Positions 52,240 to 59,069 of a DNA stretch of 64,000 bases are shown here, piece after piece. The DNA comes from Escherichia phage EAWsc9: sequence record PQ341120.1; one strand, 5' to 3'. The position numbers and the translations under genes were made by a program. Position 1 is the first letter of the stretch; each line of letters begins with the position of its first letter. Below the pieces are notes generated by a model, which was given only the letters and a program-made list of their open reading frames with translations, searched no databases and had not been told where the DNA came from.

Positions 52240-52560
52240 TTATAGCGTAATCCATTCTCTGATAGTTTGGGTTACGACACGTTCTTGGAGCTTAACCAGT
52301 TCAACAGTCGGGACCATATGGTCCCAGTCGGTATGATAAGAACCGGTACGAGTTTCGTTTACAGCCACATGCACATTATGTTTTTTGCTGAAATAAATTG
52401 CCTGGCGATATTGGTATTTGCCGGTTTGTGTCCATTCGCCTAATTCAACCGGAACCAGGTAGTCCGAAAATTCAAACTCGTATGATTCAGTAAACGCATC
52501 ATGGTCTTCAATGATTTCGCTTAAAACAGCATCAACATCTAATTCATTTTCAATAGTCAT
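52240..52560 (-). CDS. Hypothetical acidic protein (106 aa)
   Basis: ORF. Confidence 0.5.
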   Translation of the reverse strand: MTIENELDVDAVLSEIIEDHDAFTESYEFEFSDYLVPVELGEWTQTGKYQYRQAIYFSKKHNVHVAVNETRTGSYHTDWDHMVPTVELVKLQERVVTQTIREWITL

Positions 52561-53475: not shown

Positions 53476-53733
53476 TTATTCCTTAATTCCTAATACTTGT
53501 TTGAAGGTCTCAGTATAATCGGGGTATTGACCGGTTTGTTCTTTATGTTTGACCATAATACCATAAACTTCTGAACGCATATTATTATATGAACGAGTTA
53601 AAGCAGATTTCAATACTGAATAACTATCCGGAAGTTTACCGTGTTCTTTATAATAGGCCAGAGTTAATTCACGGACCGCCTTATCAGCAGTCTCAAGATA
53701 TTCTTTACGCTTTGCCATTTTCGTCTCGCTCAA
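53476..53733 (-). CDS. Hypothetical protein (85 aa)
   Basis: ORF. Confidence 0.5.
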
Positions 53734-54049
53734 ATTTGTGTTTACAATGTCTGCATTTGTAACGAAGAGTACTAGTCTGCCAATGGACTAACTGGACCTG
53801 TTCAGTTCCGCATTCTGGACAGTTTGGAACACGTTTAGAAGCACGTTCACGCCGACGAACCATAGCCATTACCATATCCCAATCAGGAACCTGACTATAA
53901 TCATCACAGCCATGAATCTTTCCTAACTGCACAAGGTCAGCACCCTCAGCGTTTTCAATAAATTTTAAAAGACCTTTATTAACCCCCGCAGCGGGGGTCC
54001 ATTCTGGAAATGCAGTTTCTGCAATATCTTCAGCTAAACGTTGTTTCAT
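53705..54049 (-). CDS. Zinc-ribbon-containing hypothetical protein (114 aa)
   Basis: CPECG...CRHCKH. Confidence 0.5.
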
Positions 54050-55035
54050 TTCAGCAGCTCCAGAGCCTGTTCCAGTTTATCCAGACGATTAGTTGATTCT
54101 TCCCAAAGTCGCTTGGCTTTGGTATAGTCTTCAGTTGCCTTTTTATTAACAGCAAGAGCTTTATTATACGCCATTTCCAGAGCAACAATTTCAGGCGCTT
54201 TTTGTTCCACTGGCTCATTATTCAGATTATCAATCAGGTCTTCAAGGGTGGTTTCTTGCGGAGCATTCATAATTTCCTCACTTTTCTTTTTATAAATTTC
54301 TGCATCAGTTGGTTGTTTTGCGCATTTAACTTCGCGTAATGTCACCACAATTTTCCAACCTTTCCAACCATGAGTACTGGTGATAGGGTCTACTTTAATT
54401 TTTTCAACAGTACGCATATAATTAAGGGCACACTGCATCTGTGAAGTAAGCGTACTCGCAGCATCAAAATACTTTTTGACATTTTCTGGAGTAGCCACTG
54501 GCGTAAAGAATCCATACTTAGCTGTAATAATTACCTGGTTTTCACCAGACTCTTTAACCTTGACCATGTGCTCAGCCAAATGGGAGATAGTGCGATAATC
54601 GCCACCCATCAGCTTTGTTGCTGATTTGATGATAGACATTTTGTTATCTCTGAATTCACGAGCCCAGCAATTTGCGAATTCAGAAACAGTATAGCCTTGA
54701 TTATCAAGGTAGTATTTTTCAACATCACCAAACCAATGATATCCAATTGTACCTTTACCACGTCTGGATTCAACACCAAACTTATTAAGAAGGTCTTTAT
54801 TAACTAGGTATGCCAGGACTCGGGAACCTTTAAAAGTTTTCTTGATATCATCTTTACCGGCACGACTCGCAATAGTCGCAATGTCTTTCTTGAAGCGACC
54901 GGATGCAACAATCGTCGAGTCAATCTGATTTAACCAGTAATTGATAATTAAAAGGATAGCCGATTCACCTATTAATGGTTTTACTTTTGCATCGATAGTG
55001 GTGTTAAAGGCCTGGATATATTCGTTACGCGTCAT
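54046..55035 (-). CDS. Paralog family member 1 (329 aa) with C-terminal coiled coil
   Basis: RVLAYLVNKDLLNKFG motif shared with next two large genes; heptad-like C-terminus ...[13 protein letters not shown]. Confidence 0.6.
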   Translation of the reverse strand: MTRNEYIQAFNTTIDAKVKPLIGESAILLIINYWLNQIDSTIVASGRFKKDIATIASRAGKDDIKKTFKGSRVLAYLVNKDLLNKFGVESRRGKGTIGYHWFGDVEKYYLDNQGYTVSEFANCWAREFRDNKMSIIKSATKLMGGDYRTISHLAEHMVKVKESGENQVIITAKYGFFTPVATPENVKKYFDAASTLTSQMQCALNYMRTVEKIKVDPITSTHGWKGWKIVVTLREVKCAKQPTDAEIYKKKSEEIMNAPQETTLEDLIDNLNNEPVEQKAPEIVALEMAYNKALAVNKKATEDYTKAKRLWEESTNRLDKLEQALELLK

Positions 55036-55093
55036 AGTGTTCTCCTCATAAAGTAGGAATTCATTATACTCCCTCCATCCTTGGAAGTAAACA

Positions 55094-55969
55094 TTATTTT
55101 AATGCTAAAATCGCCGCCTGCAATTTATTGCGTTGTTTTTCCATGTTCTTGATGCGATTCAGAACATCCTGGATACCCTTTTTCTCATCTTCAATCAGAC
55201 CGTTTAAGCGGTTGACTGATTCCTGGATAGCATCAGCATGATAGCTCTCAATAGGCTTCATTGGTGGGTTAAAGATTTCAAGAGAGCTGTTTGGCTGGAT
55301 TTTCCATTGATACATATTTTTAACTTCCAGTGGTGAAATTTTAGCCTGGTCGTAAGATTTAAACTGACCTGTAACTGCTGGGTTATATGCTGCAGTAGGG
55401 GTTTCCATTTCTGGTTCCTTTTTCTCTTGATAAGGAGCATAAGACAAAAGATATTCTTTAGTTAATTTAATATCAATGACTATAGTTTTAAGGAATTTTT
55501 CTGTTTGATGGATATAATTTGTATCTTCTTCAAACGTGTATGCTTCAACGGCATGACGCATATAAAACAGAGCAATACCCATAACCTCTTTAAAGGTATC
55601 ACAAAGAGCAACATCACCCTTAGTAGTTGGCTTGAACTTAATCTGCACGCCATCGTTCTTGATATTAATAATCAAGTTATCGGAGTTAAAATTATAGTTC
55701 TTGATGTTAACCGGAGCCTTGCGAATACGAAGCCCTGCAGCCAGGATTTCCTTAATGCTCTTACGAACTGTGGCACCAAACAAAAACGCAGGGCGGCGGC
55801 AGTAATCATTCAGAGAGTTAATTCTTACAATACGTTGTCCATACCCCTGGGTGGCAGAACCTGATTTGATTTTACCAAAGTTAACCAGAGAATTCATCGC
55901 GATAAGACGGGTTGCACGACCTTCACGCTGTTCAAATCGAGAATATTCTTTACGTGTTTTAATTTTCAT
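55094..55969 (-). CDS. Paralog family member 2 (~291 aa) with C-terminal coiled coil
   Basis: RATRLIAMNSLVNFGK motif; start ambiguous (ATG 55969 or 55993); C-terminus ...KLQAAILALK. Confidence 0.55.
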   Translation of the reverse strand: MKIKTRKEYSRFEQREGRATRLIAMNSLVNFGKIKSGSATQGYGQRIVRINSLNDYCRRPAFLFGATVRKSIKEILAAGLRIRKAPVNIKNYNFNSDNLIINIKNDGVQIKFKPTTKGDVALCDTFKEVMGIALFYMRHAVEAYTFEEDTNYIHQTEKFLKTIVIDIKLTKEYLLSYAPYQEKKEPEMETPTAAYNPAVTGQFKSYDQAKISPLEVKNMYQWKIQPNSSLEIFNPPMKPIESYHADAIQESVNRLNGLIEDEKKGIQDVLNRIKNMEKQRNKLQAAILALK

Positions 55970-55970
55970 A

Positions 55971-56186
55971 TCATAATCCAAATAATTTTTCATAGAGTTT
56001 AGCAAAAGGCCAGGTCACACACATTATAACAGCGACTACCCAGAATATAGGCCAGCAAAATGTTGTGAACGCCGCATCATACTCGTCCCCACTTTCGTAG
56101 GGACTATCAAACTTGTGGAGCAACAGGGTAGTAATAAAACCTATCACAAGATAACCAAAAATAATACTGATAATCAAAATGGTCAT
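55971..56186 (-). CDS. Small membrane protein (71 aa)
   Basis: ATG at 56186 with SD AAGGA; two TM segments. Confidence 0.45.
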   Translation of the reverse strand: MTILIISIIFGYLVIGFITTLLLHKFDSPYESGDEYDAAFTTFCWPIFWVVAVIMCVTWPFAKLYEKLFGL

Positions 56187-56187
56187 A

Positions 56188-57033
56188 TTAATCCTTAAGC
56201 AATTCAATAACGTTCATCAGTTTCTGACGTTCGGCTTTCGCTGCATTGTTCAGTCCTGACAGACGGAAAATTTCATCATCTTGTTGCTGGATGGTGATGT
56301 TAAGCTCTTCAATCTGTTTAGTGAAAAGCTCAATTTGCTCTGAATATTTTTCATTGCTTCGCACTGGTACGGGTTCCATTTTAGGAGCTTGTTCTGAATG
56401 TTCTTCAGCCAGGTCTTTAATTTTATAAAGTTTAATACGTTGACCTACTCCAGTTTCAGCATCACCAAAACTAAGAACGCCGTGTTGTTCTAATTCAGAC
56501 AGGGCCAAGCGCAGATGGAACTTCCAGTTGTCATATTGACAACCACTAAAAGTTGAAATGGTATACTCATTTTCATTTCCGGGGTGGTTAACAATATTAA
56601 AGATAATCCAATCACCTGAACCGTTAGTCTTAAATGTCATTTGTTTATCAAGACCTTTTGCAAGACGAGCACCAAGGGCCAGTAGACGACGTTGATTAGT
56701 ATTAAGGTCTTTAACAACTTCGCCAAATGACATCGCCGGGATTAAACGACCATAAAGGTCGTAGCCTTTGTTATAATTTTTAAGAATAATTTTGGCATTA
56801 GCACGAGACAACATACCTGTTTTACGAAGAGTTTTCATGACTCGGTCTTCTAAGGTAAACGAACCTTTAGTCTTGTCAAAGATTTTAGTGAAGTCATCTT
56901 TAACAGTACAAACATTGAACTTGTCCCACATCATATATAGGACCTTTTCAACCACTTCTTTAGTGCTTGGAATACGACCGAATTTAACAACTTTTTTAAC
57001 TTCAGAACGAATTTCATTAATTGCTTGCGACAT
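56188..57033 (-). CDS. Paralog family member 3 (281 aa) with C-terminal coiled coil
   Basis: RANAKIILKNYNKGY motif; C-terminus ...KLMNVIELLKD. Confidence 0.6.
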   Translation of the reverse strand: MSQAINEIRSEVKKVVKFGRIPSTKEVVEKVLYMMWDKFNVCTVKDDFTKIFDKTKGSFTLEDRVMKTLRKTGMLSRANAKIILKNYNKGYDLYGRLIPAMSFGEVVKDLNTNQRRLLALGARLAKGLDKQMTFKTNGSGDWIIFNIVNHPGNENEYTISTFSGCQYDNWKFHLRLALSELEQHGVLSFGDAETGVGQRIKLYKIKDLAEEHSEQAPKMEPVPVRSNEKYSEQIELFTKQIEELNITIQQQDDEIFRLSGLNNAAKAERQKLMNVIELLKD

Positions 57034-57096
57034 AATAATTTCCTCAATAGATTAATCAAAGGTCAGAACCATTATACCATCCTTGGTATAAAGCGT

Positions 57097-57621
57097 TTAT
57101 GCGAGAACCGTCTTTAAACGCTCTTCAAACTTCTGAAGGAGTACCTGGCGCTCTGCTCTTTGTTTGGTATAGGTTTCAATACGCTCTGAAGTGAGATTGT
57201 ATTGTTCATTAACTGATTCCCTCATGAATTCAGGAATCTCTTTACATGCTTTGATTTCATTGAACTTATCAAGCACCGCTTGTTGTTCAGCAATCAGACC
57301 ATCATAATATTGGATATCTGATTTGATGTTTTGTACATCAGATTCAGTAGGCATATTTTTCTTCGCTCTTGTCGCCTGATACTCTGCATTAGTCTCTCTT
57401 GACCAGAACAAAGAGCGATTTTTGTTGGTGTTTTTATACACATCAACAATACCTACTGAATCAACAGTCACAATCCAGTTCCAGGCGTTTTTATAAGTTT
57501 GACCACCTGATACTGTAATCTCACCCGCACAAGCAACATCATTAAAGAACTTGCTTTGTGCTTCTGATTTAAAATTACCATTATTGTAATTAATCAGATT
57601 AAAGATTGATTTGGCTTCCAT
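57097..57621 (-). CDS. Hypothetical protein (174 aa) with C-terminal coiled coil
   Basis: ATG at 57621 after promoter cassette leader. Confidence 0.5.
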   Translation of the reverse strand: MEAKSIFNLINYNNGNFKSEAQSKFFNDVACAGEITVSGGQTYKNAWNWIVTVDSVGIVDVYKNTNKNRSLFWSRETNAEYQATRAKKNMPTESDVQNIKSDIQYYDGLIAEQQAVLDKFNEIKACKEIPEFMRESVNEQYNLTSERIETYTKQRAERQVLLQKFEERLKTVLA

Positions 57622-58322: not shown

Positions 58323-59069
58323 ATGATTTTATCCGGAAGAACTGTTGATGAACTCAATGAAAAAGTCCAGGCTGCCTTGGCTAATAATTGGTATTTGTTT
58401 GGTTCTACTATGGTGTTGCCGAATACCCCTACAGATAGCAAAGAGCGTTTTTTCCAAACTATGTCCAGCTCGGAAACTCAGATACCGGGCCCGCCTGGGC
58501 CAAAAGGAGACCCGGGTGTACCAGGACCAAAAGGAGACCCAGGCGGGGATGGAAAGTCTTCTTATCAGATATGGCTTGACTTGGGAAATACAGGAACTGT
58601 TGATGATTTTTTAACTGATACAGCAGGAAAGAGGGAAAAATCCGAGGTGTTTTGGAGTGGTATAAACGTTCTATTAACTAATGGTACGACTTCAAACATA
58701 ATTAGTGTTTTAAAGGGGATTCCACCGACTGCAGGGACTCTATCTCCGTTTTTTAGAACCACTGATGATAAGTTGTGGCCATATAACCAAGACAGAAGCC
58801 TAATGTTTAAACTCAACCTTATTGGTAATTTTGCAGGAGCCTCGCAAGCTCGAAGTATAACATTAAATTTCGTTGGAACCAACGGAAACACTTATATACA
58901 GAATCGTCCGGAAAATGCTACAGATATTTTGTCTTTTACAACGTTCTTTAGCATTGATAAAGATGGGGCAATGGCAACCAATGGTACAGCTATAACTGTT
59001 ATGCCAAATGGCGGCAACTTTACAATAACCTCTGCATTGTTAGTAGCCGAACAAACAGTGACTTCATAA
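58323..59069 (+). CDS. Collagen-repeat fibre-like protein (248 aa), plus strand
   Basis: Strong SD AAAGGAGAAAG; Gly-X-Y run GPPGPKGDPGVPGPKGDPGGDG followed by SSYQIWLDLGNTGTVDDFL, the motif that follows collagen repeats in many phage fibre proteins; Asn/Thr-rich C-terminal domain. Confidence 0.65.
   Translation: MILSGRTVDELNEKVQAALANNWYLFGSTMVLPNTPTDSKERFFQTMSSSETQIPGPPGPKGDPGVPGPKGDPGGDGKSSYQIWLDLGNTGTVDDFLTDTAGKREKSEVFWSGINVLLTNGTTSNIISVLKGIPPTAGTLSPFFRTTDDKLWPYNQDRSLMFKLNLIGNFAGASQARSITLNFVGTNGNTYIQNRPENATDILSFTTFFSIDKDGAMATNGTAITVMPNGGNFTITSALLVAEQTVTS

Follow-up and report, generated by a model that had tools for sequence, protein, structure and literature searches.

Few phage genes are known to overcome a SIR2-type, NAD+-depleting defence, and nrdC.5 of phage T4 is one of them. 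When the host dsr1 gene is disrupted, a T4 deletion clone otherwise unable to plate on ECOR17 is rescued, plasmid-borne dsr1 protects MG1655 against the deletion clone, and T4 nrdC.5 expressed alone restores plating on cells with dsr1 from ECOR17 (Srikant et al., eLife 2022, PMC9391042). Of the T4 internal proteins, IPI is an inhibitor of GmrSD, and IPIII makes infection of ECOR17 possible (PMC9391042). The sensor of Dsr1 has been reported to recognise phage major capsid proteins; Dsr1 and Avs7 have a common sensor for capsid protein, and one of the Avs families detects tail terminators (PMC13581612). T6 Gp49.2 inhibits the OLD defence system (PMC13096335), T4 tolerates deletion of the nrdC.1-6 block (PMC9825161), and DSAD1 is described as a phage inhibitor of DSR2, an NAD+-depleting SIR2 defence (PMC10973363). 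Here we analyse a 64,000-nucleotide stretch of Escherichia phage EAWsc9 (sequence record PQ341120.1; hereafter the window), in which three neighbouring genes correspond to nrdC.4, nrdC.5, and nrdC.6, and report that their products arose by ancient duplication of one gene and have since diverged strongly.

An initial annotation, made from the letters of the window, had described three open reading frames (ORFs) of ~300 aa at this locus. They exist as described, on the minus strand and with lengths of 329, 291, and 281 aa, and on sequence criteria they are this phage's NrdC.4, NrdC.5, and NrdC.6 orthologues:

54046..55035, minus strand: NrdC.4 orthologue, 329 aa (VR7 annotation, synteny, phrog_1435, PF26897)
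55094..55969, minus strand: NrdC.5 orthologue, 291 aa (VR7 annotation, synteny, PF23882/DUF7235, phrog_2351)
56188..57033, minus strand: NrdC.6 orthologue, 281 aa (VR7 annotation, synteny, phrog_2257, PF26899)

The locus is the early-gene block of a T-even phage, downstream of nrdD, gene 49, and nrdC, and the three minus-strand ORFs lie between nrdC and nrdC.11, i.e., outside the late structural (tail) module. Over its 4.9 kb, the closest matches are Yersinia phage vB_YenM_P8 (96.5% identity) and the VR7/SP18 group of the genus Gaprivervirus. NrdC.4 matches phrog_1435 over its full length (E = 4.6e-140; residues 1-329 on profile positions 1-334) and is 91% identical to VR7 nrdC.4, and PF26897 is precomputed on 62 of its 62 homologues. 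With the VR7 annotation mapped on the window, nrdC.4 is found downstream of nrdC, nrdC.1, and nrdC.2, as in the T4 locus order. NrdC.5 matches PF23882/DUF7235 with 385.6 bits (cutoff 30; residues 1-291 on profile positions 9-307) and phrog_2351 at E = 5.4e-101. By tblastn, with the match at the T4 nrdC.5 locus, it is 26.5% identical to T4 NrdC.5 over 97% of its length (E = 7e-18), and a hidden Markov model (HMM) of the NrdC.5 family (A2) matches T4 NrdC.5 at 4.7e-31 in a small custom database. NrdC.6 matches phrog_2257 at E = 1.6e-125 (residues 1-281 on profile positions 1-303), has 104 homologues carrying PF26899, and is 90% identical to NrdC.6 of JS10 (P0128). When each of the three proteins was searched by tblastn, it was found at one place per genome in 553-741 phage records, and the families never cross-matched.

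A relationship among the three families became visible once each profile was widened by one bridging member (T4 NrdC.3, T4 NrdC.5, and PM2_092 for the respective families). In hhalign, the widened NrdC.3/4 profile aligned with that of NrdC.5 over 236 columns (69.9% probability, E = 4.1e-5) and with that of NrdC.6 over 139 columns (78.7% probability, E = 1.7e-5), so that the similarity in both alignments reaches well beyond the coiled coil. The NrdC.5-NrdC.6 alignment (E = 1.2e-3) is confined to the linker and the C-terminal helix. The real scores for these pairs were 47.5, 49.0, and 32.3, compared with 18 +/- 3 for block-shuffled templates (maximum 25.8; 40 shuffles per pair) and 13-23 for reversed ones. 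The NrdC.4 profile, run exhaustively against 1.84 billion proteins, also found T4-type NrdC.3, at E = 1.3e-7.

Iterative HMM searches pointed the same way. The search set comprised 242 ORFs with a minimum length of 100 aa, drawn from the window and seven further phage loci; each window protein served separately as seed, with an inclusion threshold of E <= 1e-3. All three seeds converged on the same 17 of the 242 proteins and absorbed no unrelated ORF (next non-member E >= 0.09); the coiled-coil gp46/SbcC proteins were left out. Such searches can drift, and none did so here. PM2_092, a 309-aa protein encoded directly after nrdC.2, is matched by the NrdC.6 HMM at E = 1.7e-5 (small custom database), carries the LALGAR motif that is invariant in NrdC.6, and ends in LFAALSALK. 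The externally built PHROG profiles form a chain of cross-matches: PM2_092 matches phrog_26858, phrog_2257 (NrdC.6), and phrog_2351 (NrdC.5), and a Klebsiella LAL003 protein (LAL003_324) matches phrog_23608, phrog_31182, phrog_26858, and phrog_1435 (NrdC.3/4).

The initial annotation had also pointed to a shared basic motif near the N terminus, and this is borne out: the three motifs fall into one register (KGSRVLAYLVNKDLLNKFG, GRATRLIAMNSLVNFGK, KTGMLSRANAKIILKNYNKG) both in the hhalign alignments and in a 13-sequence alignment (A9).

54775..54846, minus strand: basic motif IKKTFKGSRVLAYLVNKDLLNKFG, NrdC.4 residues 64-87, in register with the NrdC.5 and NrdC.6 motifs (hhalign, A9)
55871..55930, minus strand: basic motif QREGRATRLIAMNSLVNFGK, NrdC.5 residues 14-33 (hhalign, A9)
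56761..56838, minus strand: basic motif MKTLRKTGMLSRANAKIILKNYNKGY, NrdC.6 residues 66-91 (hhalign, A9)

At the motif, the AlphaFold2 (AF2) model of NrdC.4 has a helix followed by a beta-hairpin (H61-69, H72-84, E89-92, E96-99), and that of NrdC.5 has a helix at 18-29, then strands; most positions of the NrdC.6 motif are invariant within its family. After a second common motif, F..F..N....L...[SA]RL..G, come a core helix with AL..M...V, then a linker proline that is invariant, and finally the ending L..A...LK. Each protein has five parts in the same order, namely an N-terminal helical region with the basic helix-plus-hairpin motif, a helix with F..F..N....L...[SA]RL..G, a beta-beta-alpha-beta-beta core, a flexible linker with a conserved proline, and a heptad helix of ~45 residues that ends L-x-x-A-h-x-h-L-K at the C terminus.

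The models of NrdC.4 (predicted local distance difference test [pLDDT] score 82.8) and NrdC.5 (pLDDT 62) show the same order of elements, from helix and beta-hairpin through helices and beta-beta-alpha-beta-beta to a disordered linker and a C-terminal helix of 48-51 residues. Their helix boundaries, which come from separate alignments, correspond one to one along the hhalign alignment. In Foldseek searches of BFVD, all matches of the NrdC.4 model at E < 1e-3 are ~300-aa proteins of T4-like phages, among them an NrdC.3-like protein (1e-8), JS10 NrdC.6 (8.4e-5, probability 1.00), and an NrdC.6-family protein of Sf25. The NrdC.5 model matches PM2 A0A0A0PZG4 (6e-6) and Cronus A0A2S1GM98 (5.8e-7), and these two proteins are common to the matches of both models (probability 1.00). 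PM2_092 was equated with A0A0A0PZG4 on matching length (309 aa) and organism. Judged from the NrdC.4 and NrdC.5 models and their Foldseek links to NrdC.6, to an NrdC.3-like protein, and to common neighbours, fold and element order are the same in the superfamily.

The C-terminal helices had been called heptad-like, and the last 49 residues of all three proteins indeed keep a continuous a/d register.

54049..54195, minus strand: C-terminal heptad helix ending LEQALELLK, NrdC.4 residues 281-329 (single helix 281-328 in the model)
55097..55252, minus strand: C-terminal heptad helix ending LQAAILALK, NrdC.5 residues 240-291 (helix 240-290 in the model)
56191..56337, minus strand: C-terminal heptad segment ending LMNVIELLKD, NrdC.6 residues 233-281 (hhalign with the NrdC.5 tail)

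The a/d core of the NrdC.4 tail reads ILYANAYAWSLLLL (shuffle p = 0.0035), that of NrdC.5 is 86% hydrophobic over the last 49 residues, a value reached by 0 of 2000 shuffles, and that of NrdC.6 is 79% hydrophobic (p = 0.005). Taken with T4 NrdC.3 and PM2_092, the last 49 residues of all five proteins have an uninterrupted a/d register with a hydrophobic core of 79-86% (shuffle p <= 0.005). A regular expression for the C-terminal ending matches just these three of the 249 window ORFs; because it was built from those three, only its later matches to T4 NrdC.3, PM2_092, and RB69 NrdC.6 count as evidence. As a sequence pattern, the common ending is real, and statistically it is insufficient alone. 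The NrdC proteins are probably dimerised or oligomerised through this coiled coil. The next gene, nrdC.8, had likewise been said to end in a coiled coil; its product has no continuous heptad (57%, p = 0.24). Two tails in other phages look different: the T4 reference NrdC.6 (L002:5567-6394) ends in ...EELIFLFNNMMMKFSDYLD, while 296-aa Tequatrovirus homologues end in the family coiled coil ...AERQKYIDILNLLKD, so the laboratory T4 nrdC.6 probably carries a frameshift that removes the tail, and in alignment A9, RB69 NrdC.5 likewise has an aberrant-looking C terminus.

The superfamily, which is confined to T4-like phages (Straboviridae), includes NrdC.3 of T4 and RB69. Its copy number, which the initial annotation had proposed comparing across related phages, varies from one to four. 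T4 has four members (NrdC.3-6), RB69 has three (.3,.5, and.6, lacking nrdC.4), and the window and VR7 have three (.4,.5, and.6; the window lacks nrdC.3). At least one copy each is found near nrdC in PM2, Klebsiella LAL003, Enterobacter ZX13, and Acinetobacter AbTZA1, where the scan covered the stretch around nrdC (+/- 12 kb; 40 kb for PM2). Identity to T4 is 49% for NrdC.4, 27% for NrdC.5, and 49% for NrdC.6, compared with 64-84% for NrdC, NrdC.1, NrdC.2, NrdC.8, NrdC.11, gp49.2, and gp49.3; on these identities, NrdC.4-6 are shown to diverge faster between genera than most of their neighbours. The diversifying selection that had been suggested is not shown by gene-wide ratios. Pairwise ratios of nonsynonymous to synonymous substitutions (dN/dS) over whole genes against VR7 are 0.18-0.20 for NrdC.4-6, clearly purifying and just a little higher than the 0.00-0.14 of most neighbours. 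Read from these ratios, selection on the three genes is purifying, with at most slightly relaxed constraint.

What might such proteins do? The invariant columns of alignment A9 are M1 and one proline only. Because no polar residue is conserved across the superfamily, NrdC.3-6 most likely act by binding rather than as enzymes. For the window proteins, neither Pfam (E <= 1) nor PADLOC returned a functional domain, and outside the coiled coil nothing of the kind came from PDB sequences either. The PADLOC defence-system models had no match for them and gave, for T4 NrdC.5, a coiled-coil-type LmuB match only (E = 0.0014). An HMM search of PDB sequences returned designed helical repeats and coiled-coil noise only, including faint matches to SMC coiled coils.

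The only functional evidence for the superfamily is the T4 nrdC.5 phenotype. Since T4 nrdC.5 is already known to neutralise Dsr1, the other paralogues are good candidates for counter-defence genes. The neighbourhood is rich in such genes: a gp49.2 orthologue that is 75% identical to that of T4 lies at 52240-52560 on the minus strand, and within about 3.7 kb there are at least two window genes (gp49.2 and nrdC.5) whose T-even orthologues have published counter-defence activity. NrdC.4-6 also appear to be dispensable in laboratory hosts, as T4 nrdC.1-6 can be deleted. The suggestion that the paralogues are anti-defence specificity variants fits the T4 nrdC.5 phenotype, the gp49.2 neighbour, and the deletable block, with direct support for one family member (T4 NrdC.5) only. 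Our preferred reading, to which we give a probability of roughly 0.55, is that the proteins descend from a single ancestral gene and have diverged, with each paralogue binding and blocking its own, different host immune protein, in the way that T4 NrdC.5 functionally counters Dsr1, a SIR2 defence protein. The proteins would act as non-enzymatic binders of host immune proteins, oligomerised through their coiled-coil tails. NrdC.5 of the window would have kept anti-Dsr1 activity through direct binding, and NrdC.4 and NrdC.6 would have anti-defence roles as well.

Several points weigh against this reading, beginning with the relationship itself. Pairwise BLASTP of NrdC.4, NrdC.5, and NrdC.6 gave no significant similarity in any pair, a first hhalign run on the within-family alignments (21-24 sequences, effective number of sequences [Neff] about 2) returned probabilities of 1-2%, and HMMs of the last 40 residues alone gave no significant link between the families. 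These results are what one would expect if the proteins were unrelated and their likeness merely compositional, made up of coiled-coil tails and a chance basic motif. By BLASTP, the lack of similarity beyond composition that the initial annotation had named as decisive against it seemed to be at hand, and this was overturned by four more sensitive, largely independent tests. With the widened profiles, alignments of 139-236 columns reach well outside the coiled coil (E about 1e-5, controls far lower), and the iterative searches take up the 17 family members alone, passing over gp46/SbcC and other proteins with coiled coils. In Foldseek, every neighbour is a ~300-aa protein of a T4-like phage, and the order of secondary structure is identical in the NrdC.4 and NrdC.5 models. 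Independent origins are already contradicted by these profile, search, and model tests, and we regard them as highly improbable; we count common ancestry as shown. The paralogy claimed at the outset is thus supported by the widened profiles, though far too remote for the simple pairwise alignment that had been proposed, and given the sensitive tests, the aligned motifs, and the heptad tails, the original observation is confirmed, save for its remark on the next gene. Certain reservations about the profile and model evidence belong on the same side as the BLASTP result. By sequence, the NrdC.5-NrdC.6 link is direct over the tail only and otherwise runs via the bridging members; the E-values of the A2, NrdC.6-HMM, superfamily-profile, and iterative searches come from small custom databases (114-323 ORFs for the last three); the NrdC.5 model is of low confidence (pLDDT 62); and NrdC.6 was judged via the BFVD model of its 90%-identical JS10 orthologue.

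For the functional half of the reading, the counterweights are that the window NrdC.5 has low sequence identity to T4 NrdC.5 (about 27%), and its target is uncertain because it is 26.5% identical; that direct binding of Dsr1 by T4 NrdC.5 is an assumption, as the published phenotype gives no mechanism; and that a gene-wide dN/dS of about 0.2 does not point to an arms race within the genus. A phenotype published without mechanism would also suit host-takeover factors that bind housekeeping proteins (proteases, RNA polymerase, or metabolic enzymes) and affect Dsr1 indirectly. The proteins look like non-enzymatic binders, and the neighbouring Pin targets the host Lon protease (T4 annotation). Yet nrdC.5 expression alone restores plating specifically on dsr1+ cells, and patchy copy number together with fast divergence is more typical of accessory counter-defence genes; we hold this explanation to be possible, with the odds clearly against it. 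The basic helix-plus-hairpin could instead be a winged-helix-like element that binds DNA or RNA, in which case the proteins would be coiled-coil dimers that have no immunity role and modulate early-to-middle gene expression or host takeover. Neither a helix-turn-helix or winged-helix profile nor a structure match of that kind was found, and we consider such regulators unlikely. A further variant, which we think quite improbable, holds that the alpha/beta core is a tail-terminator-like fold re-used as an early decoy, with coiled-coil-linked paralogues occupying different receptors that sense phage structural proteins by shape; the common C-terminal ending might then allow hetero-oligomers of paralogues that cover several receptors at once. 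Tail-terminator and tail-completion families (lambda gpU, SPP1 gp17-like, DUF3168) gave no Pfam match even at E <= 1, and the genes lie in the early region; a tail-terminator relationship by homology was downgraded to fold resemblance.

The other features of the locus are as follows:

57097..57621, minus strand: NrdC.8 orthologue (phrog_2274)
55971..56207, minus strand: 78-aa ORF between NrdC.6 and NrdC.5 with a hydrophobic N terminus (ORF list; corresponds to VR7ORF094c, 91% identical)
55063..55091, minus strand: promoter-like site in the 58-nt gap upstream of NrdC.4, TTTACT-N17-TATAAT with a G before (consensus scan, 10/12 matches)
57071..57095, minus strand: MotA-box-like candidate upstream of NrdC.6, CGCTTTA-N12-TATAAT (sequence reading)

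The array had been described as tandem, and its members are neighbouring ORFs without being strictly contiguous, as the 78-aa ORF at 55971-56207 lies between NrdC.6 and NrdC.5. From its hydrophobic N terminus, this ORF probably encodes a small membrane protein; a Pfam search gave no match, and we do not count it in the NrdC family. It shares 20 nt with the end of NrdC.6 and has the top dN/dS value in the block (0.36). The putative site at 55063..55091 resembles what we take to be the T4 early-promoter type, and the site at 57071..57095, a candidate MotA-box-like promoter, resembles what we take to be the T4 middle-promoter consensus. From these sites, NrdC.4-6 appear to be transcribed from early- or middle-type promoters of their own.

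Two candidates for membership were rejected. NrdC.8 was not absorbed as a fourth member by the iterative HMM searches (best E 0.089) and has no continuous heptad, and a 309-aa ORF of Citrobacter phage Miller (L006:18943-19872) gave weak, tail-only matches (E about 0.05) and is assigned to another PHROG. ORFs of 170-173 aa near nrdC in PM2 (L003:7772-8293), Klebsiella LAL003 (L004:11080-11592), and Enterobacter ZX13 (L007:10608-11123) repeatedly fell just short of the threshold (E 0.1-0.6) when the superfamily profiles were used, and a 175-aa Klebsiella KPV15 protein is a Foldseek match of the NrdC.4 model (E = 7.6e-3); these ORFs of 170-175 aa may be short relatives or noise. Among the neighbours, the NrdC.2 orthologue (53705-54049, minus strand) has a C-terminal CxxC...CxxC zinc ribbon with many weak zinc-ribbon Pfam matches, and its identity of 63-64% to T4 and to VR7 is the lowest among the small nrdC-proximal genes. 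A 248-aa ORF at 58323-59069 lies on the plus strand within an otherwise all-minus early block and fills the slot of T4 nrdC.10. It combines a short collagen-like Gly-x-y run (residues 56-77) with an Sf6-type tail-needle-knob domain (PF16532, E = 2.6e-32), and its 1.1-kb stretch is present at 80% or more in just 8 phage records. One would not expect such a podovirus-type needle-knob domain among the early genes of a T4-like myovirus.

The array itself is not new: these genes have long been annotated in T-even phages, and one orthologue has a published counter-defence phenotype. What the analysis adds is that current databases split one superfamily over three Pfam families and at least seven PHROGs, with PHROGs merging NrdC.3 and NrdC.4 only. 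In open-access papers and bioRxiv, we found no functional study of nrdC.3,.4,.6, or DUF7235 and no description of NrdC.3/.4/.5/.6 as one superfamily with a defined architecture. We see this as a useful, moderately interesting refinement with directly testable candidates, and not as a new kind of system. If NrdC.3, NrdC.4, and NrdC.6 share the fold and ancestry of NrdC.5, they provide three counter-defence candidates across several hundred T-even phage sequences (553-741 records per protein), with a defined architecture to dissect (basic motif, alpha/beta core, and coiled-coil tail) and a natural copy-number range of one to four that makes comparative tests possible.

Compared with the best-described relative, T4 NrdC.5, the product of window ORF 55094-55969 is the syntenic orthologue with the same DUF7235 and PHROG, and the likeness of the window NrdC.4 and NrdC.6 to it is one of remote paralogy. 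T4 NrdC.5 was tested against Dsr1 in vivo, whereas the window orthologue, 26.5% identical, is known from sequence; the T4 study (PMC9391042) gives a phenotype without a mechanism and does not report the relationship to NrdC.3, NrdC.4, and NrdC.6. T4 NrdC.3, NrdC.4, and NrdC.6 are conserved T-even early proteins, and the window proteins are direct orthologues of the latter two. PHROGs already groups NrdC.3 with NrdC.4, and NrdC.4, NrdC.5, and NrdC.6 are assigned to families of their own in the databases. DSAD1 is, like T4 NrdC.5, a phage protein that neutralises a defence-associated sirtuin; it differs in target (DSR2, not Dsr1) and phage lineage, and the analogy is functional only, with nothing to suggest homology, although no sequence or structural comparison with DSAD1 was made. 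The T4 internal proteins IPI, IPII, and IPIII offer another analogy, being likewise a dispensable, diversified accessory set of T-even phages. Unrelated to the NrdC set, they enter the capsid by means of a targeting sequence; no signal of this kind is present in the NrdC proteins, whose synthesis presumably follows infection.

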